Shown piece after piece: positions 2 to 32,279 of a stretch of DNA of 64,000 nucleotides (position 1 is its first letter; each line of letters begins with the position of its first letter). This stretch comes from Nemertoderma westbladi (taxonomy: Eukaryota; Animalia; Xenacoelomorpha). The stretch spans positions 43,201-107,200 of the forward strand of contig JAUCBJ010008367.1 of assembly GCA_032718475.1 (NCBI GenBank). Direction: 5' to 3'. The notes beneath the pieces were generated by a model, which was not told the origin of the DNA, searched no databases, and saw only the letters and a list, made by a program, of their open reading frames with translations. The position numbers and the translations under genes are program-made.

Positions 2-3000
2 AATAGTGAAGGAACCAAGCTTGTGTTGGACGCAATCGATGTGGATATGAGAGCTGCGAACCAAGCTAGATTTGATGAACGCCTCCGCATCACTAGAGTC
101 CAAGAAGAACAAGTGAAGAAAAAACGTATAGAAGACAGAAAGACAGCGGCAGTGGCAGCAGCAGTGGCAGCGGCAGAAGCAGAAAGAAAAGCGGCAGTGG
201 CAGCGGCAGAGGCAGAGGCAGAAGCGGAAAGAAAAGTGGCAGCGGCAGCAGCCGAAGCGGAAAGAAAGGCGGCAGTGGCAGCGGCAGAGGCAGTAGCAGA
301 AGCGCGGAGAGCTTCTGAAGAAACCACCCAATTAGAATTGGAAAACATTCAGGAGAATCAAGACTGCATAAATAAACAATTAACAGCTAGTAATATGCAG
401 ATGATGAGTCGATCTACTCCCAAAAGACAGGGATATACATCATCTGAGGAAGGCGATACCACCGATACTGAAGGCGGAGGAAATAGATCTCGTCTAAGCA
501 GACGTAGAAGAATGTCCCACCGTCAGAAATTGCCTGATTTGCCCCCAGCTGTTAGAAGGCAACTAACTAACACAAATTTAGGTAGTACAGAACCCACAGA
601 CCAAATAATTAAAATAGAAAGACTCCCTACTATAATAGATGAGCCTGAAATAATTAGGCCTGTTCCCGAAGCCACCCCTTCGGTGGTAGAGACACCTGTA
701 CTCCCTGAACCTACCTCTAAATTCCCTCTGCACAGCACTAAGCTATCTGTGCCCCACAGAACCACCCTTGAAAATGTTCATGTCCTGGACTCCGAGCGAA
801 ATATTAATGATTTGTCGCCCGTTGTCCCTCGTCCGCCCGCTACAACGTTGGCGGCTCCCGCTTCGGCGGTCGAGTGGGTGGATGAGAGACGACGGGGGAT
901 GGATCTTCTGCTCGGGCAAATGCAGGAGACTGTTCAGCAATTCAAGGGCACAGTAAGGGAAAGTAGGTTAGAGTTGCAAGAAGTGCAGCAAAGTATTGCG
1001 TTAGAACGCGATAAATTAGTAAATACACAAAGAGGTATACCACCACCCCCTGTAACAATGTGTCAACCTGTTAGGTCTGAAGTATCTCATGCGCAAGGTG
1101 TGGAGCCTACACGCATATATACTGCTAGCGAAGTAGAAACTCCTATAGTGAACCCTATTAAGGGTAATTATAGACCTGTTGATAATGATATTCCCTATAG
1201 ACCTGATCATAATCCGAGAAATTTATATACCGATAACTCGATATTAAATAACACGATGGCCCAAGAAAGTTTTACGCGTCAAATGGCTAGAACCGAAGCC
1301 CGTCAAGCGGTAAAGGTGGGAGAGATAGTCAAGTTCAATGGAGATGAGATGAAATGGTTACCTTTTAATGAATATTATAAAGATAACATACAGAACTCTG
1401 TACTATCTAATGGAGAGAAACTTAGATTCCTCATCGAGTGCTTGGAAGGATCTCCCAAGTTAATGGCGTTAAAGTTTATTGGACATCCAGACGGATTAAG
1501 ACAAGTTTGGGATACACTAAACATCAGGTATGGTAATAGGAATAACATACCTAAATATTTGTATGCAAAATTAGTAGCGCCCCGAAAGTTCATTAGCAGC
1601 GGGATAATAGAGTTTTCCGATGAGATTCAAGAGATCTGTAGACAATTAGATTGGTTAGGTAAGTCTCATGAATATCAGAGTTCTATGGTTATTGGAGCCG
1701 TGGCTTCTACTTTACCGAAGGGTGGAGTAGGTACACGCTGGGATAAGAAAGTGTTATATATGATGGAACAACAACGACGAGACCCTACCATGGCTGATCT
1801 TATGTCATTCTTAGATGGAGAAGTGAAATTACAGCTCCTAAAACAGTCCAGAGAGAAGACACCGGAAAACAAGGTAAGTGAGAAACCCGTTTCTAGGAGA
1901 AAGGTAACACCAGTGTGTTATACAGACGACGGCGAAAGCCAGACTTCTCAAGGAGAGGATAGCGGGAAAGACACTGAAAGATCTTATTATGTCAATAAAA
2001 TGCCTAAAGAACAGGTAAGTAAATTCAAGTCTCGAACCAATGACAGGAGAGAACAGGTAAGAAAAACTCCTCCTACGTCTCCTAAGAGAATTCAGGTGAG
2101 AAAGCCCGAAGAAAGAATGAGTGTGCACAATGTTATTCAAAATAAGGTAAGTAACATCAAACCGAAATGTGCGCTATGTGATGGGACCCACCGTTTGAAT
2201 ATGTGTGATGAATTCCTGAAGAAATCATTAACGGAGAGACGGGAAGTCATGTGGGATAAGCGGTTGTGTTATAATTGCCTCAGACAAGGACACCAACGGC
2301 GAACCTGTTACTCCGACACAAGGTGTGCAAAGTGCGGTGCGAAACATCATATCTTGTTGCACACTGAATTTGAGCGAAACAGCCAGAGTCAGGTAAGTGA
2401 TTCCGAACTACATGTCCAATTCAGTGATGTGAACGACACTGACCAAAGTTCTGAGATGGAAGGATTCTATACAGATGAATTCTCCGACGAAGATGAATCC
2501 TGTTACATGATAAATACCGCAGTGTATCGAGCACTTACGTATGAAAAAGACACAGACAGCGACCTCACCCTAACTACTTCTGATCGACAACCATCTTGGA
2601 AAGCGCCACCTTCCAATGTAGGAATCCGAGAATTTCCTGTAGTACAGGTAAGGGTCCACGGACCTAAAAGGAGTTATGTAGTGAACGCCCTCCTTGACTC
2701 CGGTAGTACAGGAACATTCATCGACAAAGAACTAGCCGAAGACATCTTTGCTGGACAACCCTGCCGAACTAAGCTAAACATGTCAGGAATTATGCAGGTT
2801 TGGAAATCTACAGTAATAGCGGATTATTATGTAGGTGCGTTGTCCACCCCCCAGGATGAACTAGGAGAACATAGTATAAGGTCAGTAAAAATGGTGGCGA
2901 TAAAGAACTTCGCTACCACCCAAGTGGAACCTTATAATTGGGATGAGGACGATTTCACCCAGCAGCTTGAAATACCTAGATTCAACACCGATTACCCTGG

Positions 3001-6000
3001 AGTGCAAATACTCATCGGTCAAAACGCGCATGAAGCGCTCGAGACATTGGAGAAACGGCCTGCTCAACCGCAACCACTACAAGCTTATGCGGGAAGAACT
3101 AGAGTGGGTTGGTACTTTACTGGCCCTTCCCGTAGAACTCTCATGGAAAGATTACCGAAAGACCAGGTATATCAAGTAAGAGAATGGGAAGTCGAGGGCA
3201 GTGAGTTAGACGATCCAACTGAGGGAACACCATACTCCTCAGATAATGACGATGTCCACCAACTTTTCGACGAGGAGAATACCATCGATCTCCTTAAGGA
3301 AAACGAGACTTGGCAAAACCAAGTGAACTTATGTCAGCTCCTTCTTCCATCAGAACGAGACGACTATAACGACGAGCTTAATGACGTCATTGAACGTTAT
3401 AATGCCAAGACTCGGGATGAACACGCCGTACGATTCTTTACTCAAGAGGCTGTAGAGCCCAATTCCTACGATAAGGCCCTATCGTTAGAGGAAGAAAGAG
3501 CCAAGCAGATCCAAGAGACAACTACACGTTTTCTTAAAGATCAAGGTAGATATGAGATCAGTCTACCTTTCCGAAAGCGAGAACCAAAGTTCGTAAACAA
3601 CAGACCCTTGGCGGAGAAAAGAATTGCTCAACTACATCGACGCCTTACGGCAAATTCTTCAGCTAAAGAAATGTATCAAACGCAGTTGAAGAAATTTATT
3701 AGCAAGGGATATGCGGAGCTAGTACCGGAAGAAACACCTATAACTGAGAGAACGTATTATTTAACTCACCATTACGTTCCCAAACCCGGTAAACCCCATG
3801 AGGTACGAGTGGTGTTTGACGGCTCCGCCCTCTATATGGGCCAATCCCTTAATTCCAAATTGTTACCCGGACCCAACTTACTCCAATCCTTGTTGGGAAT
3901 ACTCTTAAGATTAAGACAATATTCAATTGCTTTCGCCTCAGATATAGAAGGCATGTTCTTACAAGTCAAGGCGCTGGATAGGGATCGAGATAGCCAACGA
4001 TTTCTGTGGTGGCCTGAAGGAGACCTCAACCAGAAACCGGTGGAGTACTGGATGACCATCCAGGCTTTTGGGATAATCTCAAGCCCTTCAAACGCCTGTT
4101 CAGTGGTGCGCACCACTGCGGATGACAACCGAGACGCCTTCTCTAAAGAGGTGATTGACAACATCAAGCGGGATATATACATGGACGACAATCTAAAGTC
4201 CCTTCCATCAGTCGAAGAAGCCATCGATGTCGCTAAAGGAACGGTAGAGTGCTTAAAAAGAGGTGGATTTCGATTAACTAAATTCACCAGCAACTCCCGT
4301 GAGTTTCTGGAGTCGATCCCGGTAGAAGATCGAGGAGCGAAAGACCTGGATCTAATAAAAGATGATCTCCCAGAAACTAAGACCCTTGGTTTGAAATGGG
4401 ACACAGAAAGAGATATCCTGTTTTTCCAACTAAAACAGCGAGATAATCCAGTTCGGACTAAATGGATTTGTTTAAGTATCCTGAGCACTTATTTCGATCC
4501 ATTGGGATTTATTAGCCCAGTTATATTGATTGCTCGGAGTTTAGTACAACAAATGTGGCTTGAAAACCACTCATGGGACGATCCACTTAAGGGAGAATTA
4601 TTAAAGAAGTGGATGAAATGGGAAGATTCTCTACCAGCCATCGAGAACTTTATAATTTCCCGTTCATATTTTGGTCATGTTCTCCCTACGTATTCCTATC
4701 AACTCCATGTGTTTGGAGACGCCAGCGATATGGGAATAGGTATAGTAGCCTACCTAAGGGTGGAAACTCCGGACGGAATCAAAGTCGCCTTGGTTACCTC
4801 TAAGGCATTGATAAACAATAAGTTGAAAGTTCCTCGAGCGGAGTTAAAGGCGGCTCTATACGCTACAGCCATCGGCCGGAATGTAACAGAAAAGATCGAC
4901 TATCCACTGGAGAAAACTGTCTATTGGACCGACGCTTTACTCGTGTTGGAGTATATAACCAATGAAGTCTGTCAGTTCAGCGTCTTCGTTACCAACAGAG
5001 TAGCCATTATACTCAGTCATACAATGATGGATCAATGGAGACATTGCCCCGGAACGATTAATCCAGCAGACATCGCCTCCAGGGGAGCAACTCCACAAGA
5101 ACTGGTAGACACTCCAGACTGGTTAGGTGGACCCGACTTCCTCTACAAAGAAGAAGAAGAATGGCCTCCTCATCTTACTACCACAGAGATTAGACAGGCC
5201 AAGGGAGCAGAGAAAGTCAAACGTAAAACTCGGGCGAGTAAATCGAAGTTATTCAAACCTATGGTAGATCTGTCTGTACTACATACTTCCGGAGACGACG
5301 CTTTGGATCAGAAACCCACAGCCACAAATAAGCTTGTTGTGGAAATCCGTGAGAAGGATTGGAAATCTGGAATACCAGACGTCTCGCAAGGACTCTCACC
5401 TCTTCTGCAGAGAGCGATACATCACTACAGTTCCTGGAATCGGCTCTGTAAGGCCATTACATATTTAAAGAGATGTTTTCACCATCACTACTCCGGGATG
5501 AAGACCAAAGGTGATACCGCTCCAATAACATCAGTGCAGGTCCATGTTATTAAAGATCTTCCCAAATATAAGATACCCGACAGGTTTCTGAAGGAGAAGA
5601 TCAGTTATCAGGAACATGAAGAAACCAACAAGCAGATGCTGAGACTCCTGCAATGCTATGAGGATTCCGATAAGTATTTCCTGTTGTTGAGAAATCCGCA
5701 GATACGCTTAAGGGATCGTTTCTCTAGCACAATGATAGATGGGTTGATATGTGTTGGAGGAAGATTAACGAATGCTCCATTATCCTTTGACACTAAGTTT
5801 CCCATACTCATTAGAAATCTTGAGATACCAGTCAAGATGATTGTAGATGTTCACAGCAAACTTTATCATGCTGGTAGAGAACGAGTTCTTAGCGAAATTC
5901 GAACTCGCTATTATTTTTATAAACCCCGTAGAGCTCTGAACCAAGTTCTTAGGAACTGCATACCCTGTAGGAAAGCATTCAGTAGGCCTTTAACACAGCG

Positions 6001-7063
6001 AGAGGCAGAATTACCTAGGGAACGAGTAAGCTTCTATGAACCACCCTTTACTAATACCGGTGTAGATTTATTTGGCCCTATTGAAGTATATCGTGCTAGG
6101 ACTATAGTCAAGAGATGGTGTGTCATCTTTGTTTGTATGACTTGTAGAGCTATCCATCTCGATATGGTGAACGATTTATCTACCAACAGCTTTCTATTAA
6201 GCTTACGACGACAGATCGCTCGCTTTGGCACTAGTAACACGATGAGATCTGATAAGGGAACAAACTTCATTGGTGCCAATAATGAAATCAAAGCTTACGT
6301 CAAAGATTGGAACCAAAGACAGGTGGACGATCAGCTACGAGTAACAGCGTCTAGCTGGACCTTCAACGCCGCCGACGCCCCTTGGTGGGGAGGAAGTTGG
6401 GAGAGATTAATAAGAAGTGTGAAGACCGCATTTCACTTTATAGTGCCTTGCCGCGCGTATCTCACCGACGAACTTTTGCGGACGTTAATGGAGGAAATCG
6501 CCGCCTATCTCAATGAGAGACCGCTTATGCCAGTCTCATCGAGTCCCGATTCCCTGGAAGCGCTAACACCCGCGCACTTCCTACTGAAGAAACCTGTAGC
6601 CATGCTCCCACAATCGGAAATCACAGACGGAGACGAATACTGCCGGCAAACTTGGCAACTCATGCAGTTGTTATCCCGTCGTTTCGCTGACCATTTTGAA
6701 AAACATTATCTGCCCACGCTACAACTTCGAACTAAGTGGTTTGCGCAGCAAGAAAACGTCAGCGCTGGAGACATGGTTCTTATTGTGGATGTAGATCTTC
6801 CACGTAAGCGGTGGCAGACAGGTCGTATCATCGAGACTCACATCTCGGATGATGGTTTGGTGTGATCGGTAGAACTCGTCGTCATGCGACGTAACTTCAA
6901 GAAACCGGGAATTGTCTTCGAGACACAGCAGCTCAATCGCCCAGTTGGTCGCTTATGTTTACTGGAAAGAGACAGAGAACTCTCCGGAAACTATGGGAGG
7001 CAAGATACTCTTCCCACGACCACCTCCCTAATCCAACAAACATCTAGGGACTCCCCAACTTAA
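2..7063 (+). CDS. BEL/Pao Gag-Pol polyprotein (Gag, triple Cys/His box, protease, RT, RNase H, integrase); premature TGA at 6863-6865
   Basis: Frame is open from the window start. Motifs: KFNGD..W..F (BEL gag core), CALCDGTHRLNMC/CYNCLRQGHQRRTC/CAKCGAKHHILLH, ALLDSGS, YMDD, FGDAS/WTDA/NPADIASRG, H-H-CIPC, GVDLFGP/SDKGTNF/GGSWER. Copy 2 has CGA at the 6863 stop and continues to a stop matching 7061-7063. Confidence 0.93.
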
Positions 7064-8323
7064 CAACGGCTGGAGTGGGTGTATGACTATATTTTATATT
7101 TGTTTTTATTCTTTTATATTTATGTATGTATTATTATGTAATTTTATTATAATCGTTTTCTTTAATTTTATTTAGTAGATTGTTATTTTAGCGATTATTT
7201 AGTAGATTAGTGCAATATATATTCGCCGTTTATTACTTAATTACTTACATATTATATATTTAGTGCGACGGCGAGAAATAATCCTTTTCTCCTTCCTTAC
7301 TGTCCGTATTACCTTACAAATACGTAACTACAGTAAGATGAAATGTCCGTACTTATTAAAGTACAATAAAGCTCCTACTATATTTAAGTATTATTGGTAA
7401 GCAGAGTATTAGGAATGCAAAATTCAGATCCTCGTGTCTCGGCTAAACCAAGCTCTGGGTAGACCTTGGAAACAACTTGCCTCTTCTCACTGACATTGCT
7501 TCGTGCGATATTGCTCTCATACCGTATATTAAATAATACATATAGTAGCGTGATGTCCTTTTAACAGTAGCGTACAACGCAAAATAAATCTGTTAAACTC
7601 TTTGAGCATCTGTAATTCTAGTCGATTAAGATATCGCGGCACCCACCGATATACTTGAAAGACAAAATTTTAGAATCAGTGGTTAACGTCCCCAGACAAG
7701 TTCTGGAATAAACTGGTGCCCATCCTAAATATTAATTATTAATATTTACAAAATCTGTCAAATTTTAGATCCTTTAAAATTCTAGTCGATTAAGATATCG
7801 TAGCACTTACCGATACTCTTAAAAAGACAAAATTCCTAGAATCAAGCATCCCAGTCCCCAGACACGTTCTGGAATAAAATTACGTCTATTTAACATTAAA
7901 TAATAAAATTTACGGGAATAAATTTAAATTCATATATTTCAATGAATTTAATAAATTGTCATTTTTATACAATTTATAACATTCCCAAAATTCCATTAAT
8001 TAATAGATCATGGGAGCGGAGATTCACTCTATTAAGTGTATTTGTGTGCGAGAATCTCCAATATATAGTCAATAGCCGATAAAATTCATAAAATCACGTA
8101 TAGAGAGGATATTGACCATTAAAGAATTACTATTAAATAGCATCCCAGATCTGTATGCATGAGAATTACCCTAATTCTACCGCTAGCTTTCCATAATGTC
8201 ACCATGGCAACAACCACGCTAGAATTAGAAGTGAGTTAAAAGAACAATAGAAAGCTTGCCCCATTGAATAGCATAGGGAATAAATAGCGCACTGCTAGTA
8301 TCCAAGGATACATAATAAATAAA

Positions 8324-8658
8324 GTGACATTCTGGAAGGTACTGACTAATGGACAAATGGCCCGAATGTGTACAGTTTGTGGCAGTTGTGTTGAATTTGT
8401 GCGTTCATAGGTGAATGTTACTGCTAAAGTGTGTTTACAGTAGCTAGTCGCAATTGTGAAAGTAGCCCTAACTCTCCAGAAAGAACCTGAAGTACATCTA
8501 AGCCTTTGGGACGGACAGTGGAGTGACTTGTGCCGGTTATCGTTGTCGTTGTGTAGCTACATCGTTGGCGAAAGCACAGCGACGACGGTACATCGGCGCT
8601 GAGGATCTTGCACTGTCCGGGGGCAAAAGAGGGGTAGGCAGCGACGCCCGCTAGCCTA
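8324..8658 (+). ncRNA. Structured cis-RNA (IRES-like candidate) upstream of accessory ORF, copy 1
   Basis: GC-richer island in an AT-rich spacer. Nested stems 8512-8520/8611-8619, 8530-8537/8592-8599 and 8539-8554/8574-8589; hairpin 8635-8658; stem 8324-8332/8413-8421. Differences from copy 2 within these stems keep pairing. Confidence 0.6.
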
Positions 8659-8699
8659 ATATATAAACTCATTATAATATTGATAAACTCATAGCAGAT

Positions 8700-11600
8700 A
8701 TGACTGAGTTGATAGAAGATGATCTTGGTATCAGAGAGCGATATACTCTACCTATACAAGCGTTTGTCGATAGCTTGATACGCGGCGACGCTGGTCCAAC
8801 TACTACGGAGGATGATGGTCGTTATATCGAACCGCCAATGTCCCAGGAGCAACTTACGCGTGAATTGGACTATCGAAAGTTCACCGCTCGCTATACGCAT
8901 CGTAATGGTACGTATATGGACTTCTTAACTACTGGCCATCCTATCGATTTACACGATACGGACGATGTAGATACCGAAAGGGAAATGGTTTTATTTAAAT
9001 ATCATACCCAGCGGAGTCGGAACGATAAACCGAGAATAGAACACGAGAACTCTATTCGAAACAGACTCGAAAGGGAAGACGTTGAAGAGCCAGATAAACG
9101 CAGTGACTTCAACGATTATCTGGAATTCCTGAGAGAGACATATCTCAATATTGCCAGCCAACAAAATCTCGAAACTCGATATCCTCAAGGTAAACATCAT
9201 GATCCTATGATAGAACTCAAACGACTCTATTTCACTATGATGTATCTTACCGCCGATCGACCGGTACCTGTCATCCCAGATAGCTTCGAACAGATGGAGG
9301 AATATTGTAAAACTGGAGAACGATCACCCGCGTTTCCCCTGCAGGACGTGCGTCTTTGGTATTACTGCGATGAATGCCCTAGACCCAATCAGCAAACGGA
9401 AAGACATAAACATCCGCGGAGACGTTGCGCTAAACACAGTTTTACCCGATATACTTATGGGAGTTTCGAGCGAAACCTGTTCGACGTATCCCCTACGGTC
9501 GCTCGACTCAAACGATCCTTGAATAAACCGATGATCAGAGTTCCGGAATACTCGGTCAGACCTCCTCATTCCTCAGTTAGACCTCAGACTCTTGATCCTA
9601 ATAGTATCACGGATCCTCCCGAACTGTACTCACTGTTCAAAGATCTAGTGTTACCCGAACAGTTGATCGGTGGCACTCCGGTAGTGGGCTCGCTAGATAT
9701 TCGCCAACCCTACCTAGCCGGATTAGGACGCGGTCATCTAATATCGCCGTTTAACCCATACAACCATCCCGGCTTCACCCTCGATCCAACCCGTTACGGA
9801 AGTCGAAGAGAGCGTCGTACGAAATGAGTTAGACGCTATTCAGCAGAAAATCGGAAAGGGAACTTACGATTGTTTGGAGAAACGTAAATTGCAACAACAA
9901 GTCCAAGCGGTGAAGGAATTAGCTTTACCTCAGTTCGATAGAGAAATACAAAATCTCGAGGAGGACATCGAACGTGGACGAACCTACTCTTTACAAGAGT
10001 TCCTAGATGAGCGTCTACAACAACAAGCGGAGGAAAATCAGCTCGAGGAGAGACATATAGAACTAGATGAGAGAGAAGAAGCAGCTTTAGTCCAACCCGA
10101 AGCTCAAATCCTTATGACGGATCTCTACTCTAAAACCATCCTTCATCCCTCGATGGTTCCCCATTTCGGAGACAAACTCTTTGCGACGGTACAACCCCAA
10201 CCGGTTGATATCAACCTAAGATCTCGAGATCTTATCGCTGACGCTCCCATGTTGCAGCATCCGCCCATCGAAGCCGCTCGTGTCGATGGTATACTCGTTG
10301 AACCTCCGGACAATAGAGCGGATCTTGTCCGTCGCATGGTACACGATGTTAACATACGCGCTAGACCTTTACCGGACTCGTTTTATGGGATCAAAGATCA
10401 CCCTTATTACGTCAATCTAACACAATATTACATGGTAAAACCGGAAGATCCTACACATAGTTTGAGGTTTCTACCACTAATAAATCCTCTCGATCTTGTC
10501 GAACTCGAACAACTGCAGAAACATCTGGATCAGTTAGTTAAAGTAAACTCATTTCGAAAACCATATAATGTTTCCAGAATAGAGAAAGAAACAATACCTC
10601 CGTATAATCTTGATGGATTCATCAAAACTCGTTTAGTACACTGGAATCTTGACGTGTTATTCGAGGAGGAAAGAATACAACGATATGGAGATGTGGAAAC
10701 ATATACTACGCAATATTTAAAGTATAGAGACCTACCTAATGCTAGCGAATGCGCTACCTTGTGGCATCCAGTGGGAATGACCCTCGAAAACGCCACTAAA
10801 GAGTGGAACAAGACTCTTAACGTTATCGAGATGTATGGAGTTGTCACTTACGACAACGAAGGTAGCGTTCCGGTTGGAGAACTGGGAACTACGCGGATGA
10901 TACACATACGAGGACTCACTGGTTCTACCCACGTATTTACTCGAGCGTGTTCCGATGTGATTGATTATTCTTTTGAAACTCTTACTGAGACACAAAAGAA
11001 ACTCCGACATGGACAATTCGAACTCGCGCAGCGTTACGTCATCGACACCGAGCGCAAACCGGCCATGTGTATCGATGGATCGATGTTACCCCAGCCCGTG
11101 CTCGAGATGTTGTTTAACGAAAGAATCCTTAAAATCGGCTCCACTGTTTATGGAGACCTACAAAACGACTTTCGGAATATGGAGAACATTCCATACCCTT
11201 TCGTTGATACTCAGCTGATTGCTCCCTGGGCAGAAGGCTGAGATTTCTTCCGCACTATGTATGCCAATACACCCAGCGGCATTACTAAAGTACAACGAAC
11301 CTCCATCGGACATCTTGCCTTTCAAGAATACGGATGGAATTTCAAGGTTGGAAATCCTATAAATTACCAACAAGTATATGGAGACCATTATTCTCGTTTA
11401 TACTTTGATGGACCATTGACCGCACCTGGCGCCGTGTATAGCTTTATGAGTGTTCCACTTCGTCCCTCCTTAGCTATATACACGATCTTTGAAAACGCAG
11501 CACTTGCCGGTTGGCTAGCCGATGTGTGCAGTCGTACCATACGCGCCCATCCCTTAATACTTGGAACCAAACTCGCCAAGTTAGATGAACACAATAAATT

Positions 11601-12954
11601 CATCCGCTTCGAATGTTTCAGGCGCTTTCTGACTCCGTTCCGTAACGTTGATAGTCAGTTCAAGGACCGCGCTCTGACCAAACTCAGCCTAAGAGACTCA
11701 GCTGCGGAGAAGCTAATCAGCGCGGGATTTGCTCTCTTTCAGGACGTTTGTATACAGAACTTACATTCATCTGTTATACAAAGACCCCGAATACCCACAG
11801 GTTATTCTGTCGTGGAAGTTCAGACAATGGGTCCGCTTGCGGAGACAGCCGCACCTACCTCAGCTATGCAATTGGAAGACGAACCAATATGCTTAGAATC
11901 TGAAGCGATCCAGCCTACAGCGCCCCGGAGCAGCGATAACGATTACGTCTTGGAGTGGTATCAAGGTCCACAATGTCTCACCGCATACGATTATCGACAC
12001 GCCAACTATGTTTCTCGAAAACGTTGTCGATTATGCGCATCGAGAGACCATTTCACCCCTATGGACTCAGACGTACCCTGCTCCTATTTCCACGAACAAC
12101 CGATGATGGAAATCTATTGTGCGTATTGCAGACTTAATAACTCGCATATTTTTGCAGTCTGCCCCCAATTTATGACTCAATGCCACCACTGTCAACTTAA
12201 AGGACATGCCAGTTATAATTGCCCCTTTAACCGCGATTTAGAAAGCGTAGATGAGATGATTACCCTGCGCTACATCCGAGCTTGGGAAGCGAACGTGGAT
12301 TTACATTGTGAGTCCCGCCATCGCTATTACCCTGGACGCTCTTACGAGGGAGTTTACACGTTCCATCCTTATTTATTCGCGTCTGTTGAACAAAAAACAC
12401 GCACACCGAGTTACGAACTAATGAAGCGTGTTGGTGAGTGTATTTCCACCAAATTTGTTCGAAAATATCTCAGGAACGTCAATCCTAACGATATTACTTC
12501 ATACCATTTGATCAATTTCATCCGTCAAGACTCTGAGTATGGCGATTTATTTATCAACTCGCACCCTGAGTTACAGGAAGTATCTCGACGGCCCTACGAA
12601 TATCGAGCCCGAGAACGCGAGCTGGAAAGAACCATTAAACCGAGGAAGTTTCTCACCACTCACGGTCCACCTACCGCCATTGTCCAGACGACCCGTCAAG
12701 GACCCGTAGGAGCTGCTGTCCTAAGACGCGCCCTAAAGGCCGTTAGACATCGCTCCACTGAAGTTGATATCGATCAACCAGGTACCTCGACCGGCGGATA
12801 CACCGATCGTAATCCTAAACCTTCTGATGCAATTGTATTGCACCCTTCACCCAGGAGTTACAGCCCTCCTAGTAAAGTGTCTCGCCCCAAAGAGAAAAGG
12901 ACTCTTGCTAGCCTCAAAAAACTGCGTAAACGCCGTCCGCGTAAGAAAGACTAA
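8700..12954 (+). pseudogene. Accessory ORF of the BEL element (~1,417 aa reconstructed): DEDDy 3'-5' exonuclease-like domain, three CCHC knuckles, basic C-terminal tail; one frameshift (~9780) and one in-frame TGA (11239-11241)
   Basis: ORFs 9874-11241 and 11257-12954 share a frame across a single TGA. Copy 2 reads through the 9780 junction (IQPVTEVEE.VVRN.LD), and the third-position substitution pattern switches frame there. Motifs: VVTYDNEG (10840-10863), LPQPVLEMLFNERILKIG...GD...FVDTQLIA, PLRPSLAIYTIFE; knuckles at 12025-12222; KKLRKRRPRKKD. Confidence 0.75.
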
Positions 12955-13032: not shown

Positions 13033-14212
13033 TGTAAAGGCTTTTGCGGAATTAGCCGGTTATTTTCCCCGTAAAGTACTCTGTAGTTGGTTTAACAGGC
13101 ATAAAAGGCCGTGTCCTTACTGTACTGGTGTTTTAGAGGACATAAAAGCCATTTCTTCTGTATGTGTACTTTAGCGGACATAATTAGCAATTCTATGACG
13201 CAATGCGCCGGATCCTCTTGAAACAGTGTAGCTACCATGACGACGGCTAACAGCTGATGCTGTACACGTGGAGCTTTTTCTTTGTTCTCTGTTCCTTCTT
13301 TGTTCGGTCGACCAATCAGAGCGTTTTTTGCCTCTGCGTTAGAGATTGTATATAGAAACTCGTGGAGTTGAGTCAGTATGTGATTTTGTCCACAGCCTAG
13401 AACACCGGCTTTGGAACCTCCGTGTTTCAGTCTTTAGCCCAACATTAGTAGGCTTAATTATAGAACGTATATCTGTTATCATATCAATTCATAACATAAA
13501 AAACGAACCATAACTCACATATCATATCAATTTATACCTTAACACTTGTACTGCTATTTACTGTCGGTTATTCATTATATTTGTTGATGGAATATTATAT
13601 TTGGAATACTGATAAATAATCAGACACCCCGATCTTCTTGATATACTAAAGGTTAGAGAGACCGGTTACATATAACGATTGCGACTTACATTAAGTGGTT
13701 TGAAGTGAATCTAATGCTATTTCATAGGCCCTACATGTATTGTCTGTTGTTCTCTTTATATGTGACTAAAATTAGTGAAGGTCGGCAGATCAGTGTGCAG
13801 CATTGTGCAGTATTGTGTATGATTGTGACTGATAACAAAGCATCTCCTAAAGAATGCGCCATATACGTGAATCTATAGCCATCCCGTTGTGTCTAGTTTA
13901 AGTCATAACTCTGTTTACATATTTAGAGCGCCACGTCCTAAAGGAACTGTTAATATTTCCCGAAAGTGAATAATATTTGTCAGAGATTATATATATTACG
14001 ATCAGTCGAATAATACAGTAGGCCTACCCCGCAATACGGTTAGGCTTCCGAATCCAGTCTCCCGGGTATATCCAGCGGGTGAATGATCGCGCATAGACTG
14101 GCTTCGGCTAATGTAGTGTATCAAATACTTGTCATAGGCTAAAGACGATCTATTATCTAGAAGACATCCCAATTTGGCAGGTTAAACTGCTAAAGGTCTG
14201 AAAGCGCGAACA
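13033..14212 (+). repeat. 3' LTR of BEL copy 1 (1180 bp)
   Basis: Starts TGTAAAGGC after the PPT and ends GCGCGAACA; homologous to 16262-17465 and 30916-32119 but clearly diverged from them. Confidence 0.92.
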
Positions 14213-16261: not shown

Positions 16262-17465
16262 TGTAAAGGCTTTTGCGGATATAACTAGTCATTTTCCCCG
16301 CAAAGTACTCTGTAGGTGTTTTAGCGGACATAAAAAGCCGTTTTTCTTACTGTGTAGGTGTTTTAGTGGACATAAAAAGCCATTTTTCTGTATGTGTACT
16401 TTAGCGGATATAACAAGCCATTTTATGCCGCAATACGCCAAAATACTCTTAATACAGTGTGGCTTAGATGACGAAATCTATCAGCTGATTTTGATGTCGA
16501 TGTGGAGCTTTCTTAACTCTCTTTGTTCAGCTCACTCGATCAATCAGAGCGATTTTCATTTTATTTGCACAGAAGCCTCCGGGAAATCGCGCAATGCATG
16601 ATGGTCTTTGTTTACCTTTTCCTGAGCCCAGAACATCGGCTTTGGAATTATTCTTAGTTTCAGACTTTAGCCAAACATTCGACGGCTTTGATTATAGGAA
16701 CGTATAACTGTTATCAGCAAACCACTCAAGTTACGCAAAACAGCCCATATCATACTATACATACCTTTCACCGCATTATTTTACTGCTATTTACTGTCGG
16801 TTATTAATTGTTATAAGTTGGTGGATATGTTGTTATATTTGGAGAATATCGATAAATAATCATAAAACCCCAATCTTCTTGATATACTGAAGGTAAGAGG
16901 GACCAGTTACCTGTAGCAACTGCGACTTACATTTATAGTGGTTTTGGAGTGAATTGAATGCTATTTCATAATCCCTACATGTGTCAGTTGCTATTCTCCT
17001 TATATATGATCAAATTTAGTGAAGGTCGGCAGATCAGTGTGCAGCAGTGTGCGGTAGTGTACATGAGTGTGACAGATAACAAAGCATTTCCTAAAGAATG
17101 CGCTTTATACGAAAATCATTAGCCATCCCGTTGTGTTTAGTGTAAGTCATAACTCTGTTTACATACTTAGAGCGCCACGTCCTAAAGGAACTGTTAATAT
17201 TTCCCGAAAGTAAATAATATTTGTCAGAGATTATATATTAACGATCAATCGAATAGTACAGTAAGTCTACACCGCAATAAGTTCAGAGCCTCCGAATCCA
17301 GTCTCCCTTAACTGTGGGTGAATGGTCGCGCATAGGCTGGCTTCGGCTAATGTAACTTTATATCTTATATGCAACAAATACTTGTTATAGGCTAAAGTCG
17401 ATTTATAAACTAGAAGACACCTAAAATTAGCGGGTTAAACTGCTAAAGGTCTAAAAGCGCGAACA
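16262..17465 (+). repeat. 5' LTR of BEL copy 2
   Basis: Direct repeat of 30916-32119; four ~40-50-bp-spaced GCGGAYATAA-type subrepeats in the first 160 bp. Confidence 0.96.
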
Positions 17466-17476
17466 ATAACAGTTAT
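17466..17476 (+). promoter_or_regulatory. Non-tRNA primer-binding-site candidate (ATAACAGTTAT), complementary to LTR 16704-16714
   Basis: No TGG-starting tRNA PBS follows the LTR; the exact reverse complement ATAACTGTTAT is present within the LTR. Confidence 0.5.
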
Positions 17477-19068
17477 TGATTTTTTTCCTTTATTGCACAG
17501 TAGACAATAAATACAGTTTACTATTGTTCTGGTAAGAACAATAACAGTTATTCAGGTTTCTTTATTGAAACGTAGGCAATAAAGTCGAAAGTACCGGTCT
17601 ACCGGTAACCTGTAGGCCTGACTGCCTAACCACCCGAACCGGTACTTACAGCAGTATAGGTACAGCAGTATTATTAGATTTTGATAATTATATACCGGTA
17701 GGTCTTGATATTTAATCAGGGACGGCCGCCCTGGTTTTTTATTGGGATTTTACTTATTTCTGTCAGTTTTATTTATCTGTAAGTTAATATTGAGCAGAAG
17801 GCATGTAAGCCTGCTCAGATTGTACAAATAGTTTGTAGGCTGGATTGTTGTCTGGCTGTTGTCAGGTCCGAAGAGATTGCAGTGTGTGTAGAGTGTATGT
17901 CCGATAAAATACTAGTTAGGAAGGTAGGGGCATCCAGTGTTGTAAGGTAAATCCCCTCCGAAAGAATAAGTCGTACTACTCGGTTAGAACGCATACTAAC
18001 TAACCATTTCGGAGTCTGCATATACTGTAGTTTATTTAGGCTTGATAGTAGTCTGTCAGCATTTGGTTTGTATTTTGTTTGTGTAGTCTGTACGGGTAGC
18101 GTAATATTTATTATTCAGAGTTTATGCGATTATTCGCAACATACACCACCCCAAGTTTATTCCTACAGTAATTGTGCTTGTTATACATACCGTTATAGTT
18201 AAATTAACCCCGGTACTACATCAAGGCTGTTTGGCGTAAGTAAAGACTGGTGATTTTATGCTCTAGTCACTCCAGCAGATACCGTGGTTCTTTTAGCTGT
18301 ACAAGTATTTTTAACTGCTGGTTATTTGTTGTATAAGTACTTGTACCTAATTTAGGGTTTAGTGTACAGTGCTTTCCGAAGGAAATTAGTGTGTAGGCAG
18401 TATATTTGTGTTGTAAAGTGGTTAATAGGCACGTTAGCTATGGTAGGCTGCGGTAATTAACTTCTAGGTAGGGACATTCCGGGTACATAATGTAGTACTT
18501 ATAGAGCTGTAAAGCTAGAGACTATAAGTCGTCAGACGGTGGTATTTTCTTATCTAGACAATGCAATATATTTACTACTGCTTTATTATTTTCAAATACC
18601 GTAGTTTCCTGTCCGTTTGTAATAACCAGAAATTTCTAACCCCTTGTTAGGCTGGTTTGTAGATTTCCTGTAAAATTACCCTAAAATTTGTACGTGTGAT
18701 TTTTTTTGTGTTTATTTAGAGATTGTAATCTCACCCCTTAATTGTACGTAATTTGTAGTAATAAGTAACTTAGTAAATTAGAATTATTTGTTTTAGTGTC
18801 CAATAAGTAGCACTCCACTGAGAGCGTTCAGCTTCTGTGAAGTGACTCCTTACCTAGAAATAATAACATTTATTTCAAATATTGTAACAAAACCCATTAA
18901 ACGGGTATATATATATTATAAATCAACTCAAACCGATTTATAAAATAGTAGGCCTGTCATCCATCAATTAGGTCTTAATATCAGTTGGACTACTGCTTAA
19001 ATAACGGTAATAAAGTAACGTAAAGTAACCCTAAAATTCAGAAATTCAGTTATTCTAAAATAATTGAC

Positions 19069-19370
19069 ATACCGGTATTTACGATAGGCTTATTATATTT
19101 ATTTCTATAAATTTAAGCTGAAATTATATACCGGTATTCTGTAATTAATTCTAGTCTATAATTATACTTATATATGCTATAATGTAAGCTGTATACCGGT
19201 ATTCACGGTAGGCTTATTATATATTTATATATATTTGCGCTGAAATTATATACCGGTATTCTGTGACAAGCCCTAGTCTGTAATAATACATATATATATA
19301 CTATAAGTGTATACCGGTATTCTAATATATTGTATATATATCACATTACACTGAGTAACGATATCGGTAA
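19069..19370. repeat. ~60-bp-period array with palindromic ATACCGGTAT core in the BEL 5' leader
   Basis: Cores at 19069, 19128, 19193, 19250 and 19311, plus a degenerate one at 19361; spacers alternate A/B, giving a ~122-bp dimer. Confidence 0.85.
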
Positions 19371-19458
19371 TTAATTACTAGGCTTATAGTTGATACTGAA
19401 TTACTAGACTTGCTTTAACTGTAGTTCTAGCAGTAGGCATTCAACTGTACAAACAAAC

Positions 19459-22400
19459 ATGGCTGACATAAAGCAAAACCTGTCAGACAGTCTCCTAGAT
19501 ACAACAATCTGTGATCCAGATAGGAGTGCGGAACGTTTGAGACCGAAGTTCAACTCCCCTCCTACTGTAAGAAAGGTCATCCCTCCAGTAGTAGTATCAG
19601 ACCCTAGGCTAGTCAAACACCGTAGGTCCATCATAGGCACTCGGCCTCAAGTCAAGCGGGACCAAGAGGCAGCTGTTAAACAACAGCAACACTCGAGCTG
19701 ATAACTTATTTCTCAGCAGCCCGATAGCTCCAGTAGTTCACATACTGTAGAGTTGACACCCGAGCGTGGAGCAAAGATGGCAGAAGCAGTTTATTCGGAT
19801 CCACTTCTCATTCTTCCTGAAGCTGTACTTACTAGAGTATTAATTGTGATGGAGGAACATCAAATGGATTGGGCGAGAAGTAAGCGATCGACCAAGGACA
19901 GTTATGCGGGATACACGAAGGAGGAACTGAAGTCTATTGTTGAGACGCAATGGAATTTCCCCGTCCCGGACTCCCGTTTAACTTATCGGAAGCTGCCTGG
20001 GAGGACTTATACAGGATGGGAGTGGTAAGGGACACTAGAGTTCCAGCTGTGTGGAAGAGGTCGGCAGCAGGATATGTACAGGGATTCTTCAGCTCTTTGG
20101 AGCGATTAGAGGAACAACTGTTTCAACAACCCCAAGGACCTCAAGAGCAGGGAGAGCTGCTTTATCAAGTTCGAGAACGTATCCTAAGAATCAGACTAAT
20201 CCTATCGGCCTTTGAGGAAGCCTCGAAAAGAAGCCAAGACACGTCGTTGCAAGTTGCCGTAAAGACTTGGTTCCAGCGGGTGGGTCTCAAAGTTCAAGGA
20301 ACGGCCCAGTGGAAAATTCAGCTGGCTGAGCGCTCAACCCACGGAGAATCAACAGACGCTACCTTTTCTCAAGTGGAAAGCGAAGCGACATTGGAGAAAC
20401 CTCAGAAGAAGGACGCTATTGACATCTATCTGTTGGACTATCAACGATTTATTGGTGACAAAGAGTTGAGGAGACGGCTGGCTGGACTTCACCCTACTAG
20501 TGAAGGAGCCAAATTTGTGTTAGACGCATTAGATGCGGAAATGTTAGTCGCAGAGCAGGCTAAATTTGATGAAAGCATCCTCCTCGCTAGGGAACAGGAA
20601 GAACAATTAAAGAAAAAACGGATAGAAGACAGAAAGGTAGCAACAGCGGCAGTGGCAGAAGTTCAAAGAAAGGCGGCAGCTGCAGCGGCAGCGGCAGAAG
20701 CTGAAAGAAAAGTGGCAGCGGCAGAGGCAGAGGCTGAGGCAGCGGCAGCGGCTGAGGCAGCGGAAAGAAAAGCGGCAGCTGCAACGGCAGAAGCTGAAAG
20801 AAAGGTAGCAGCGGCAGAAGCGGAAAGAAAGGCGGCAGAGGCAGTGGTAGAAGCAGAACGGAAAGCATCTGAAGAGACAATCCAACTAGAGTTGGAAAAT
20901 CTTCAAGAGAAGCAAGATTACATCAATAAACAAAGAACAGCTAAGTATATGCAGATGATAAGTCGATCTACTCCCAAGAGACAGGGATTTACATCATCTG
21001 TTGAAGGTGATACCACAGATCCTGAAGGCGGAGGAAATAGATCTCGTTCCAGCGGACGTAGAAGAACGCCTCACCATCAGAAATTGCCTAATTTGCCCCC
21101 AGCTGTGAGAAGGCAACTAGCTAGTGCAGACTTAGGTAGTACAGAACCCACAGACCAAATTATTAGAATAGAAAGACTCCCTACTATAGTGGATGAGCCT
21201 GAAATAATTAGGCCTGTTCTCGAAACCACCCCCTCTGTGATGGAGACCCCTGTCCTTCCAGAACCTAACTCTAAATTCCCTTTGCACAGTACTAAACTAC
21301 CTGTATCCAGTAGGACAGTTCCTCAGACAACTCCGGTCCTGGACGCCGAGCGAGACATTAACAATTTGTCACCCGTCGTCCCTCGTCTACCCGCTACTAT
21401 GTTGGCGGCTCCCGCTTCGGCGGTAGAGTGGGTGGATGAGCGACGGCGGGGGATGGATATTCTCCTCAGGCAGATGGAGGAGAATCAGGCACGCTCCTCC
21501 CAGCAGGTCTGAGAGTTGGAGGGGACTGTTCAACAGTTAAGGGGAACAGTAAGAGAGAGTAGGTTAGAATTGCAGGAAGTGCAGCAGAGTATCGCGTTAG
21601 AACGCGATAAGTTAGTAAATCTACAAAAGGGTATACCACCACCCTCTGTAATAATGTGTCCACCTGTTATGTCTGTAATATTTCATGCGCAAGTTGTGGA
21701 GCCTACACGCATCTATACTGCTAGCGAAGTAGAAACTCCTATAATAAACCCCATTAAGGGTAACGATAAACCTGTTGATAATGATATTCCATATAGACCT
21801 GATAATAATCCGAGAAATTTATATACCGATAACTCGATATTAAATAATACGATGGCCCAAGAAAGTTTTACGTGTCAAATGGCTAGAACCGAAGCCCGTC
21901 AAGCGGTAAAGGTGGGAGAGATCGTCAAGTTCAATGGAGATGAGATGAAATGGTTACCTTTTAATGAATATTATAAAGATAACATACAGAACTCTGTGCT
22001 ATCTAACGGAGAGAAACTTAGATTCCTCATCGAGTGCTTGGAAGGATCTCCCAAGTTAATGGCGTTAAAGTTTATTGGACATCCAGATGGATTAAGACAA
22101 GTTTGGGATACACTAAACATCAGGTATGGTAATTGGAATAACATAGCTAGGTATTTGTATGCGAAATTGGTAGCGCCCCGAAAGTTTCTTAGCAGTGGGA
22201 TTATAGAATTTTCCGATGAGATCCAGGAGATTTGTAGACAATTAGATTGGCTAGGTAAGTCTCATGAATATCAGAGTTCTATGGTTATTGGAGCTGTAGC
22301 ATCTACCTTGCCAAAGGGTGGAGTGGGTACTCGTTGGGACAAAAGAGTTCTATATATGATGGAACAACAACGAAGAGACCCTACCATGGCTGATCTCATG

Positions 22401-25400
22401 TCATTCTTGGATGGAGAGGTAAAATTACAGCTCCTAAAGCAGTCCAGAAAGAAGACACCGGAAAATAAGGTAAGTGAGATACCCGTTTCTAGGAGAAAGG
22501 TAACACCAGTGTGTTATACAGACGACGGCGAAAGCCAGACCTCTCAAGAGGAGAGCAACGGGAAAGACACCGAAAGATCTTACTATGTCAACAAAACACC
22601 AAAGGATGTAAGTAAATTTAAGTCTCGAACCAGTGACAGGAGAGAACAGACAACAAAAACTCCCCCCACGTCTCCTAAGAGAATTCATGAAAGAAAGCCT
22701 GAGGAGAGAACAAGTGTGCACAACACTACCCAAGGTAAAGTAAGTAACATCAAACCAAAATGTGCGTTGTGCGACGGGCCCCACCGTTTAAGTGTGTGTG
22801 ATGAATTCTTAAAGAAATCCCTAAAAGATAGACGTGAAGTCATGTGGGATAAGCGGTTGTGTTATAATTGCCTCAGACAAGGACACCAACGGCGAACCTG
22901 TTACTCCGACGCAAGGTGTGCTAAGTGCGGCGCGAAACATCATATCTTGTTGCATACCGAATTCGAAAGAAACAGCCCGAGTCAGGTAAGTGAGTCCGAA
23001 CTACATGTCCAATTCAGTGATGTGAACGACACTGACCACAGTTCTGAGATGGAAGGATTCTACACGGATGAATTCTCCGACGAAAACGAATCCTGTTATC
23101 TAATAAACACTGCAGTGTATCGAGCACTTACGTATGAGACTGAAACCGAGAGTGAGCTTCCCCTAACTATTCCTGACCGACACCCATCTTGGAAAGCGCC
23201 AACTTCCAACGTAGGAATCCGAGAATTTCCCGTAGTGCAGTTGAGAGTCCATGGGTTAAAAAGGAGCTATATAGTGAATGCCCTCCTCGACTCCGGCAGC
23301 ACAGGAACATTCATCGACAAAGAACTAGCCGAAGACATCTTTGCTGGACAACCCAAGTTCGGAACTAAGTTGAACCTTTCAGGAATTATGCAGGTTTGGA
23401 AATCTACAGTAGCTACCGACTACTATGTAGGCGCGTTGTCCACCCCCCAGGATGAACTAGGAGAACACAGTATAAGGTCAGTAAAAATGGTGGTGATAAA
23501 GAACTTCGCTACCAGCCAAGTGGAACCTTATAACTGGGATGAAGACGATTTCACCCAGCAGCATGAGATACCTAGATTCAACACCGACTACCCAGGGGTA
23601 CAAATACTCATCGGCCAAAATGCGCATGAGGCGCTTGAGACATTAGAGAAACGGCCTGCTCAACCGCAACCATTGCAAACCTATGCGGGAAGAACTAGAG
23701 TAGGTTGGTACTTTACCGGACCTTCCCGTAGAACTCTCATGGAAAGGCTACCTAAAGAACAGGTCTACCAGGTGAGTGAATGGGAAGAGGAAATCAGTGA
23801 GGGAGACGACACACCTGAGGGAACACCATACTCCTCAGATAATGACGATATACATCAACTATTCGACGAGGAGAATACCATCGACCTCCTTACGGAAAAT
23901 GAAACTTGGCAAAACCAAGTGAACCTGTGTCACCTCATCCATCCAGCGGGACAAGTCGATTACAACGACGAACTGAATGAAGTGATAGATTGTTACAATG
24001 CGAAGACTCGCGATGAACACGCCGTATGATTCTTTACTCAAGAGGCTGTAGAGCCCAATTCCTACGATAAGGCCCTATCGGTAGAAGAGGAAAGAGCCAA
24101 GCAGATACAGGAAACGACTACCCGTTTTCTTAAAGATCAAGGTAGGTATGAGATTGGTCTGCCTTTCCGACGGCGAGAACCCAATTTTATAAACAACAGA
24201 CCCTTGGCGGAGAAGAGAATTGCGCAACTACATCGACGCCTTATGGCAAATGCTTCAGCTAAGGAGATGTACAAGACCCAGCTGAAGAAATTCATTGACA
24301 AGGGATATGCGGAGCGAGTACCGGAAGAAACACCCATAACTGAGAGAACGTACTATTTAACACATCATTACGTTCCCAAACCCAGTAAACCCAACGAAGT
24401 CCGGGTAGTATTTGACGGCTCCGCCCTCTCACATGGGCCAATCCCTTAACTCCGAGTTGTTGCCAGGACCCAACTTACTCCAATCCTTGTTGGGAATACT
24501 CTTAAGATTACGGCAATATTCGATCGCTTTCGCCTCCGATATAGAAGGCATGTTCTTACAAGTTAAGGCGCTGGATAAGGATCGGGACAGCCTACGATTT
24601 CTGTGGTGGCCTGAAGGAGACCTCAACCAGAAACCGGTGGAGTACTGGATGACCATCCAGGCTTTTGGGATCATCTCGAGCCCTTCAAACGCCTGCTCAG
24701 TAGTGCGCACCACTGCTGATGACAACCGGGACGCCTTCTCCAAAGAGGTTATCGACAACATCAAACGGGATATATACATGGACGACAATTTAAAGTCCCT
24801 CCCATCGGTGGAAGAAGCCATTGATGTCGCCAAAGGAACGGTAGAGTGCTTGAAAAGAGGTGGATTTCGATTAACTAAATTCACCAGTAACTCCCGTGAA
24901 TTTCTGGAATCGATCCCGGTAGAAGACCGAGGAGTTAAAGATCTAGACCTTATCAAGGACGATCTTCCAGAAACTAAGACGCTTGGTTTGAAATGGGACA
25001 CAGAGAGAGATATCCTGTTTTTCCAGCTAAAACAGCGAGATAATCCAGTTCGGACTAAACGGATTTGTCTAAGTATCCTGAGCACTTATTTCGATCCATT
25101 GGGATTTATTAGCCCAGTTATATTGATTGCTCGGAGTTTAGTACAACAAATGTGGCTTGAAAACCACTCATGGGACGATCCGCTTAAGGGAGAACTATTA
25201 AAGAAGTGGATGAAATGGGAAGATTCTCTACCATCCATCGAGAACTTTATAATTTCCCGTTCATATTTTGGTCATGTTCTCCCCACGTATTCCTATCAAC
25301 TCCATGTGTTTGGAGACGCCAGCGATATGGGAATAGGTATAGTAGCCTACCTGAGAGTTGAAACTCCGGATGGAATTATGGTCGCCTTGGTTACCTCTAA

Positions 25401-27660: not shown

Positions 27661-28986
27661 CAGCGTCTGGAGTGGGTGTGTGACTATATTATTTTATATA
27701 TTTTTATTATTTTTATATTTATGTGTGTATTATTATGTACTCTTATTATAATCGTTTTCTTTAATTTTATTTAGTAGAATGTTGTTCTAGCAATTATCTA
27801 GTAGATTAGTGCAATATATATTAGTCTTATTACTTAATTACTTATATATTATATATTTAGTGCGACGGCGAGAAATAATTATTTTTCTCTTTCCTTACTG
27901 TACGTATTACATTATAAATGCGTGACTACAGTAAGATGAAATATCCGTACTTATTAAAGTACAATAAAGCTCCTACTATACTCTAGTATTATTGGTAAGT
28001 AGAGTATTAGGAATGCAAAATTCAGATCCTCGTGTCTCGGCTAAACCAAGCTCTGGGTAGACCTTGGAAACGACTTGCCTCTTCTCACTGACATTGCTTC
28101 TTGCAATATTGCTCTCATACCGTATATTAAATAATACATATAGTAGCGTGATGTCCCTTTAACAGTAGCGTAAAACACAAAATAAATCTGTTAAACCCTT
28201 TGACCATCTATAATTCTAGTCGATTAAGATATCGCGGCACCCACCGATATACTTGAAAGACAAAATTATAGAATCAATGGTTAACGTCCCCAGACATGTT
28301 CTGGAATAAACCGGTGCCCATCTTAAATATTAACTATTAATATTTATAAAATCTGTCAAACAAATACAATAGATTAAATACTTAAAAGTTAACTCTAGAA
28401 AATCTATAAATTAAAATCTGTTGAATTTTAGATCCTTTAAAATTCTAGTCGATTAAGATATCGTAGCACTTACTGATACTCTTAAAAAGACAAATTTCCT
28501 AGAATCAAGGATCACAGTTCCCAGGCATGCTCTGGAATAAAATTGTGCTTATTCCAACATTAAATAATAAAATTTACGGGAATAAATTTAAATTCATCTC
28601 TTTTAATGAATTTGATAAATTGTCATTTTTATACAATTTATAACATTCCCAAAATTCCATTAATTAATAGATCATGGGAGCGGAGATTCACCCTATTAAG
28701 TATATTAGTGTGCGACAATCTCCAATATATAGTCAATAGCCGATAAAATTCATAAAATCATGTATAAAGAGGAATATTGACAATTAAAGAATTACTATTA
28801 AATAGCATCCCAGATCTGTATGCATGAGAATTACCCTAATTCTACTGCTAGCTTTCCATAATGTCACCATGGCAACAACCACGCTAGAATTAGAAGTGAG
28901 TTAAAAGAACAATAAAGCTTATCCCATTGAATAGCATAAGGAATAAAATAGCACACTGCTAGTATCCAAGGATACATAATAATAAC

Positions 28987-29322: not shown

Positions 29323-29363
29323 ATTATAACTAATTATAATATTGATAAACTCATATAGCAGCT

Positions 29364-30837: not shown

Positions 30838-30915
30838 CTGTTTAGAGTATTTTTATATTTTAGAAACTGTGATTTTTTATATTTTATAGAATTAAATCCC
30901 ATTTTCTGGGAGCGG

Positions 30916-32119: not shown

Positions 32120-32279
32120 ACTACTGTAGCTGATTTCTCATTTATATCTGATGTTAACACGTTTGGCAAAATTAAGCAAGATTTCTGTGATAAAAAATAG
32201 ATGTGAAAATTATCGAAGTCTTAAAAGCGCAAACAGTTGCCTAATTAAAAAATGGACTTTAGTTCATTGTTTTTCATCA

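Follow-up and report, generated by a model that had tools for sequence, protein, structure and literature searches.

Twin G-U-rich RNA stem-loops with a shared 15-nt motif in a Nemertoderma westbladi BEL/Pao retrotransposon: a candidate duplicated docking signal

A BEL/Pao LTR retrotransposon occurs twice, as copies ~89-91% alike, in the 64,000-nucleotide stretch of Nemertoderma westbladi DNA analyzed here (the window); in each copy a long, unbranched, G-U-rich stem-loop (arm B) stands just upstream of the accessory ORF, and a second G-U-rich stem-loop (arm A) lies inside gag (Table 1). Both arms fold preferentially as sense-strand RNA and share a 15-nt motif, and the pairing of arm B has been kept between the copies. 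The original prediction had described a conserved, ~335-nt multi-stem RNA at this site, which could serve either as an IRES or as a packaging or export signal; the supported core of that finding is the arm at 8512-8619, which is smaller than claimed. The twin arm inside gag favors the second of the two options, and the leading interpretation, to which we give somewhat less than an even chance, is that arms A and B form a duplicated protein-docking signal for the packaging or transport of the element RNA.

Table 1. Positions of the described features within the window.
Feature	Position	Strand	Remarks
gag-pol, copy 1	23..7063	+	5' part precedes the window
Arm A, copy 1	808..906	+	G-U-rich stem-loop, 40 pairs, in gag frame; motif 839-853
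X-box, copy 1	8198..8211	.	exact RFX X-box-like palindrome, candidate promoter element
5' domain	8324..8421	+	weakly supported; AUGs 8357, 8366 and 8415 common to both copies
Closing helix GCCTT/GGGGC	8502-8506/8620-8624	+	unstable in copy 1
Arm B, copy 1	8512..8619	+	unbranched G-U-rich RNA stem-loop, 44 pairs
15-nt motif in arm B, copy 1	8556..8570	+	apical 4-bp stem and 6-nt loop
Terminal hairpin	8635..8658	+	identical in both copies; stable over folding windows
Spacer before AUG	8659..8699	+	41 nt, AU-rich, GC 0.2, weak tandem 3' splice-site-like end
Accessory ORF, copy 1	8700..12954	+	open pieces 8700-9827, 9874-11241, 11257-12954
3' LTR, copy 1	13033..14212	+	
Copy 2, whole element	16262..32120	+	
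Copy 2 LTRs	16262-17466 and 30916-32120		14 differences in 1205
Arm A, copy 2	21362..21460	+	motif 21393-21407
X-box, copy 2	28863..28876	.	same sequence as copy 1
Arm B, copy 2	29176..29284	+	motif 29220-29234

The host element and its family

Membership of BEL/Pao is shown by the gag-pol region, a single frame with the Pao-type domains DUF1759, protease, Peptidase_A17, integrase zinc finger and DUF5641, together with LTRs that end in TG...CA and a short target-site duplication of 5 bp (with one mismatch in copy 2). The RT-RNase H is ~40-44% identical to its best BEL/Pao relatives, of which the named ones are mostly from marine animals. The copy 1 frame has a stop at 6865, before the end point known from copy 2, and its pol end was placed by alignment. 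Behind pol follow a 1.6-kb AT-rich spacer and then the accessory ORF, which has large deletions in copy 2. The element differs from BEL/Pao elements in its size (~18 kb), in this spacer and in an accessory ORF of ~1400 codons without detected homologues. LTR divergence between the copies amounts to 16% of aligned sites, versus 1.2% within copy 2, and neither AATAAA nor ATTAAA occurs in any of the three LTRs.

The family is polymorphic and present at high copy number, the 751 nt around the finding being matched by 9027 contigs in run X1 and 2279 in run X3, so that covariation could be tested properly on the copies from a single assembly; scans of viral, metagenome and genome contig collections returned no further loci of the feature. 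Joints that remove the RT (23851 to 25625) and the RNase H-integrase (25814 to 27519) occur in X4, where they are abundant, and in X5, and are non-autonomous deletion derivatives of the family. Both joints lie outside arms A and B, and the contigs do not phase the arms to the derivatives. The summed depth in X4 is 183 in the arm A bin versus 1204 in the next, a depth that is not interpretable.

Several further features of the element were recorded. A sense-strand folding signal sits right behind pol at 7215-7340 and 27812-27938 (z -4.9 and -2.5), and a hairpin near 7298-7337, just past pol, folds in both copies. Upstream of the X-box, the spacer contains two diverged ~165-bp tandem units, 75% alike (7586-7913; copy 2, 28184-28577), which are possible enhancer repeats. 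The 2-kb leader of copy 2 (17467-19458) holds nine ACCGGT hexamers, versus three in the following 11.5 kb, as well as a 136-bp tandem repeat (19069-19322), a hairpin cluster (17515-17645) and strong acceptor-like sites at 17500, 17766, 18604 and 18719.

Fold of arm B and the remainder of the island

The nested arm that had been predicted is real and forms on the sense strand only, with z scores of -7.2 on the + strand versus -1.9 on the - strand in copy 1, and of -4.7 versus -1.1 in copy 2; none of 200 shuffles of the + strand folds as well. Its lower part and the 16-bp helix 8539-8554/8574-8589 have pair probabilities of 0.94-1.0 in both copies and in 6/6 folding windows, and all 16 pairs of this helix are canonical, four of them G-U. 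The hairpin is worth about -65 kcal/mol (with its flanks, -67 in copy 1 and -66 in copy 2, on the sense strand), and among 355 windows along the element arm A ranks lowest in energy and arm B second. Since 17 of these 355 windows reach z < -3, a folding signal by itself is common in the element.

The idea that the whole island (in copy 2, 28987-29322) is one conserved multi-stem structure found little backing, in that only arm B and the terminal hairpin are robust, holding in 6/6 folding windows. The GC content is 0.42 at 8324-8500 and 0.58 at 8501-8660, versus 0.32 upstream. The 5' domain folds no better than its shuffles (z -1.75 in copy 1 and -1.0 in copy 2), and the adjoining 8422-8500 gives z +0.5; the outer helices of this domain keep 3/3 changed pairs, and its inner stem is broken in copy 2 and also by variant 8382 (83% of depth, X1). 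The helix proposed to close the arm was not upheld, its pair probabilities being 0.01-0.06 for copy 1 versus 0.34-0.89 for copy 2. The terminal hairpin is present as described, 41 nt before the AUG, although its stability is ordinary relative to shuffles (z -1.0). A long-range helix 8431-8441/8679-8690 was rejected, being lost in 4/6 windows in copy 1 and in 5/6 in copy 2.

Expression of the accessory ORF

Between pol and the accessory ORF there are 18 and 22 AUGs in the two copies, which makes scanning from the LTR implausible and bears out the original premise that either a subgenomic RNA or cap-independent initiation is needed for the downstream ORF. A candidate source of such an RNA is the X-box, which matches GTNRCC-N0-3-RGYAAC exactly in both copies and lies 489 nt before the accessory AUG in each; the consensus is that given in the available portion of PMC10530576, where such motifs are placed close to start sites. 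A match arises by chance in 23 of 20000 shuffles. Variant 8206, which makes up 56-79% of depth in three runs, affects a degenerate position, leaves the consensus intact and, together with the exact match in both copies, points to an internal promoter, with which an IRES would not be required for the accessory ORF. The X-box was picked by eye among many possible motifs and is for that reason a lead only, and the 67-nt identical block that contains it is not the longest of the spacer. As judged from these sequence features, the accessory ORF is likely to be transcribed from its own RFX-type internal promoter, and not reached via an IRES on the genomic RNA. The X-box would then drive an internal transcript, with a start downstream of arm B, splicing or a shunt as the options by which its ribosomes might get past the arm. 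A TATA-like stretch at 8660-8667 was discarded, as it is absent from copy 2. A third exact X-box occurs elsewhere in the window, at 60279-60292, ~420 bp before an ORF (60710-61447) with a weak MULE transposase match.

Arrangements of this kind have been described in other LTR elements. In the parts of PMC4402516 that were available, env of the Oikopleura elements Tor3b/4b is expressed from an internal promoter behind pol; the shared feature is a downstream ORF with a promoter (here a candidate) in the post-pol spacer, whereas Tor3b/4b belong to the Ty3/gypsy type, their env is a true one and the Penv start has been mapped, and the present element is of BEL/Pao type, with a non-env ORF and a motif only. 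Similarly, the excerpts of PMC5408684 describe ORF3 of the bdelloid LTR elements Juno and Vesta as a DEDDy exonuclease. They share with the present element an extra post-pol ORF and a DEDDy-like domain (a lead only here), but belong to other LTR lineages, and the domain here is weakly indicated and lies within a much longer ORF. The lead comes from the middle open piece of the accessory ORF, which scores 0.89 in the atlas for a DEDDy 3'-5' exonuclease, below the tool's mark of 0.9, and the last piece has a weak zinc-knuckle match. No relatives of the accessory ORF were found by HMMER, and its structure model (pLDDT 36) is unusable and matches no fold, so that a role of the accessory protein as reader of the arms is speculation.

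The strongest competitor of the docking interpretation, which we nevertheless consider rather unlikely, is that arm B and the terminal hairpin serve as an IRES or a shunt stem for the accessory ORF, on genomic or on X-box-started RNA. The structured part ends 41 nt before the AUG and is followed by an AU-rich, unstructured spacer, the intervening AUGs speak against scanning from the LTR, and a start near the X-box would give a leader with three shared AUGs and the arm. An internal transcript that begins upstream of arm B and remains unspliced would force ribosomes past the -65 kcal/mol hairpin. Moreover, leaders of LINE-1, gypsy and VL30 are reported to have IRES activity (as cited in the accessible part of PMC10974842). 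It is this leader, together with these retroelement precedents, that keeps an IRES a real rival.

The details of the island argue against such a role. Comparison with Rfam, one of the checks proposed with the original prediction, yielded no match to curated covariance models, known IRES families included: there were none in 8300-8720 at E up to 10, and the three weak matches obtained in 6800-8800 at E up to 5 all lie away from the island. Viral IRESs of types I-IV have a conserved, branched, multi-domain fold, which is not seen in the island, where one unbranched arm is the sole robust domain. In types I-II the AUG is preceded at 20-25 nt by a pyrimidine tract, and the longest pyrimidine run in 8660-8699 is 3 nt; types III-IV have a pseudoknot adjoining the start codon, and a crude scan for loop pairings of at least 7 bp kept in both copies gave none near the AUG. 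With respect to a shunt, the available text of PMC5902531 has the short ORF of RTBV and RTSV ending 7-8 nt before the stem, whereas the nearest AUG-started short ORF here stops at 8447, leaving 65 nt between it and the basal helix of the arm. A UA-rich landing stretch does follow the stem (GC 0.205 in 8661-8699), and long-range pairing of this stretch is not robust. Furthermore, an initiation element leaves the twin arm in gag unexplained, since an entry site for the accessory ORF would be useless in mid-frame, where arm A sits.

Less probable still, and in our estimate decidedly unlikely, is that expression of the accessory ORF depends on splicing, or on leader trans-splicing, to the AG pair 8694/8697, with the arm lying at the 3' end of the removed part and either controlling splicing or, in the manner of a CTE or RTE, marking unspliced RNA for nuclear export. 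Both copies have a tandem YAG, 2-5 nt ahead of the AUG, and a CTAAT resembling a branch point, ~35 nt upstream, strong donor-like sites exist in the LTR and leader, and splicing is the usual source of messages for the extra ORFs of LTR elements according to the consulted sections of PMC5408684, and for that of Tor3a in those of PMC4402516. The acceptor is weak, however, with a pyrimidine share of 0.48-0.52 versus 0.67-0.81 at the four leader acceptor-like sites; a YAG within 8 nt precedes 205 of the 1112 ATGs in the window, as a measure of chance, and an AG-free zone of comparable class occurs at 11-12 sites per spacer. In run X5, which spans 30/30 copy 2 bins and shares deletion joints with the DNA run X4, the candidate acceptor joint is absent among the 15 joints listed of 47, and pieces cross the acceptor unspliced; as X5 may itself be DNA, this carries no information on splicing.

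Pairing of arm B is kept between the copies

That arm B is maintained for pairing on the sense RNA is supported by the comparison of the two aligned copies, in which all P values are post hoc because the arm was picked once both copies had been seen. As predicted, C8534-G8595 and C8541-G8587 are U-A pairs in copy 2, the remaining seven changed arm pairs toggle between G-U and Watson-Crick, and three of the six letters of the apical loop differ. Thus, 9/9 changed arm B pairs are still paired. Among confidently predicted control pairs in the flanks, 27 of 47 changed ones are broken (11/23 are kept in the spacer and 9/24 in coding sequence); when the closing pair is added to arm B, the comparison is 10 kept and none broken versus 20 kept and 27 broken (Fisher p 0.0009).

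The original prediction had cautioned that both double changes (8534/8595 and 8541/8587) lie in CpG context, which is the case. In the spacer, CpG transitions are ~4x faster (0.134 vs 0.035), and of the 11 substitutions that affect paired positions in arm B, 8 are in CpG context. A null model of random transitions with CpG weighted 1-10x was run. Runs without a broken pair made up 0.7-2.6% when copy 1 was the starting point and 0.8-3.4% when it was copy 2, so the kept pairing survives the CpG check (P 0.01-0.03). The two double changes do not: at least two occur in 7-33% of the CpG-weighted runs (P 0.07-0.33), and on their own they prove nothing. Support for selection comes instead from the lack of broken pairs and from a G-U bias. 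In 49 arm B pairs of each copy there are 11 G-U pairs and no 1x1 mismatches, and the excess of G-U over A-C (11 to 0) has a binomial p of 0.001, with the reservation that the folding program itself favors G-U.

Both strands of arm B vary, with six substitutions on one and five on the other, which indicates that the shape and not the sequence has been kept. Indeed, the island is no better conserved in sequence than its flanks, the bin 8500-8599 being the most diverged of 28 between the copies (14 substitutions per 100). Among the 40 rows listed of 212 population variants, three fall on paired positions of arm B: those at 8574 and 8584 turn U-G into U-A and retain pairing, and that at 8578 breaks its pair unless the partner changes too. 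Contigs read by eye, with the two sides on different contigs, suggest a subfamily in which both partners of pair 8550/8578 carry transversions and one pair is lost.

These results leave very little room for the view that the arm represents an inverted repeat of DNA undergoing decay, in which CpG decay imitates covariation and no RNA function exists. The CpG context of most substitutions, the speed of CpG transitions and the frequency of double changes under the null model would all suit such a repeat, but 97-99% of the runs of the same model contain one or more broken pairs, the three non-CpG changes keep their pairs too, and neither the G-U to A-C imbalance nor folding on one strand is expected of a DNA repeat.

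A twin arm in gag and a shared 15-nt motif

Arm A, 7.7 kb from arm B, has 40-42 pairs, 9-10 of them G-U, and a z score of -5.5. Its energy is -66/-60 kcal/mol on the + strand and -43/-37 kcal/mol on the - strand, the sense strand being favored by ~23 kcal/mol, and 5/6 of its changed pairs are kept, the broken one being basal. In-frame Met codons also follow arm A, at residues 293 and 300. The possibility that arm A marks the usual start of gag was abandoned, as the distance ranges from 10 to 580 residues among 47 homologues and is uninformative.

The arms are linked by the 15-nt motif, which is identical at 15/15 positions in copy 2 and at 14/15 in copy 1. As a degenerate 15-mer it has four exact matches in the window, one per arm in each copy, and none elsewhere; allowing two mismatches adds a single match (0.31 expected). 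None of 20000 shuffles of arm A reaches 15-nt identity to the arm B motif, and when the element is block-shuffled 2000 times, a repeat of any island 15-mer turns up in 0.6% of cases. Alignments of arm A with arm B beat 500/500 shuffles within a copy, whereas cross-copy alignments do not, and motif positions 6 and 8 show a parallel difference between the copies at both sites. Position 8 is a CpG change, however, and position 6 is polymorphic (A>G at 8561, 42% of depth, X1), so that, with the 14/15 match in copy 1, chance could account for the parallel change. The predicted place of the motif in arm A is within the stem and not as a cap, the capped form costing 5.6-5.8 kcal/mol. Kissing or strand exchange between the arms was considered and rejected: co-folding gains no energy over the two arms folded separately, and cognate motif duplexes are no better than cross ones.

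It is highly improbable that the arms are small-RNA precursors processed by Drosha or Dicer, since their pri-miRNA-like size and shape, and the 31 bits that arm A scores on a plant miRNA model (far under its cut-off of 93), stand against an arm B that lacks an Rfam match and in which the variation of both strands leaves no mature small-RNA sequence, and no one arm, constant.

A duplicated docking signal

In the favored interpretation, arms A and B would serve as repeated docking sites for one protein, which would package or transport the element RNA; the Gag zinc knuckle, the accessory protein or a host adaptor are candidate binding factors. Arm B provides the selection-held sense-strand structure that is characteristic of packaging or localization signals. 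Its position immediately before a start codon, as would befit an initiation element, counts against docking, as do the in-frame Met codons that follow arm A.

Two known systems offer parallels. In the available part of PMC5902531, the packaging signal of pararetroviruses (CaMV, RTBV) sits atop a long leader hairpin which, like arm B, is a long stem-loop before an ORF, with variable stem sequence, an AU-rich stretch behind it and a specific apical motif. Unlike that hairpin, arm B has no short ORF directly before the stem and is not 5'-terminal on the genomic RNA, and unlike the pararetroviruses covered there, the present element has a second copy of the stem-loop within gag. The second parallel is Egalitarian, which, in the portion of PMC13186709 consulted, reads two stem-loops per RNA by shape via an exonuclease-like domain. 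The Egalitarian-BicD signals described in that portion (K10 TLS, I-factor ILS, hairy SL1/SL2) resemble the arms in being paired and shape-read, with an exonuclease-like partner. They differ in being Drosophila signals read by a host adaptor, whereas the arms here are GC/GU-rich, ~100 nt long and have a common sequence motif. By analogy, the arms would act in the manner of a pararetroviral packaging signal or of Egalitarian-bound signals, which is a proposed likeness.

A bolder version, which we regard as a long shot, is that the element addresses its own RNA by means of two stem-loops whose 15-nt tag changes in step between subfamilies, read by its own exonuclease-like zinc-knuckle protein and expressed under RFX control in ciliated or sperm-forming cells; if true, this would be a self-encoded counterpart of the Egalitarian localization system. 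In search listings of the open-access literature, neither such arms nor an RFX-type internal promoter is described for BEL/Pao. For Ty1, Ty3, gypsy and retroviruses, by contrast, it has been mapped which RNA signals act in cis and how extra ORFs are expressed. The shared tag of the twin arms and the candidate promoter of cilia or sperm type would provide handles on RNA selection and on the site of activity of the element.

Other features of the window

Another LTR-type element occupies 35888-39773 (zinc knuckle, protease, RNase H, integrase and DUF7047) and is flanked by identical 272-bp repeats at 35560-35831 and 39797-40068; an RT domain had no match in the four ORFs scanned. An intronless gene for a Cys-loop ligand-gated ion channel, ~30% identical to glycine-receptor-like proteins, lies at 52498-53739. 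LINE-type RT fragments are found at 15414-16331 and 57690-59102, with related pieces at 32286-33169, 40138-40424, 42744-42923 and 51022-51809.
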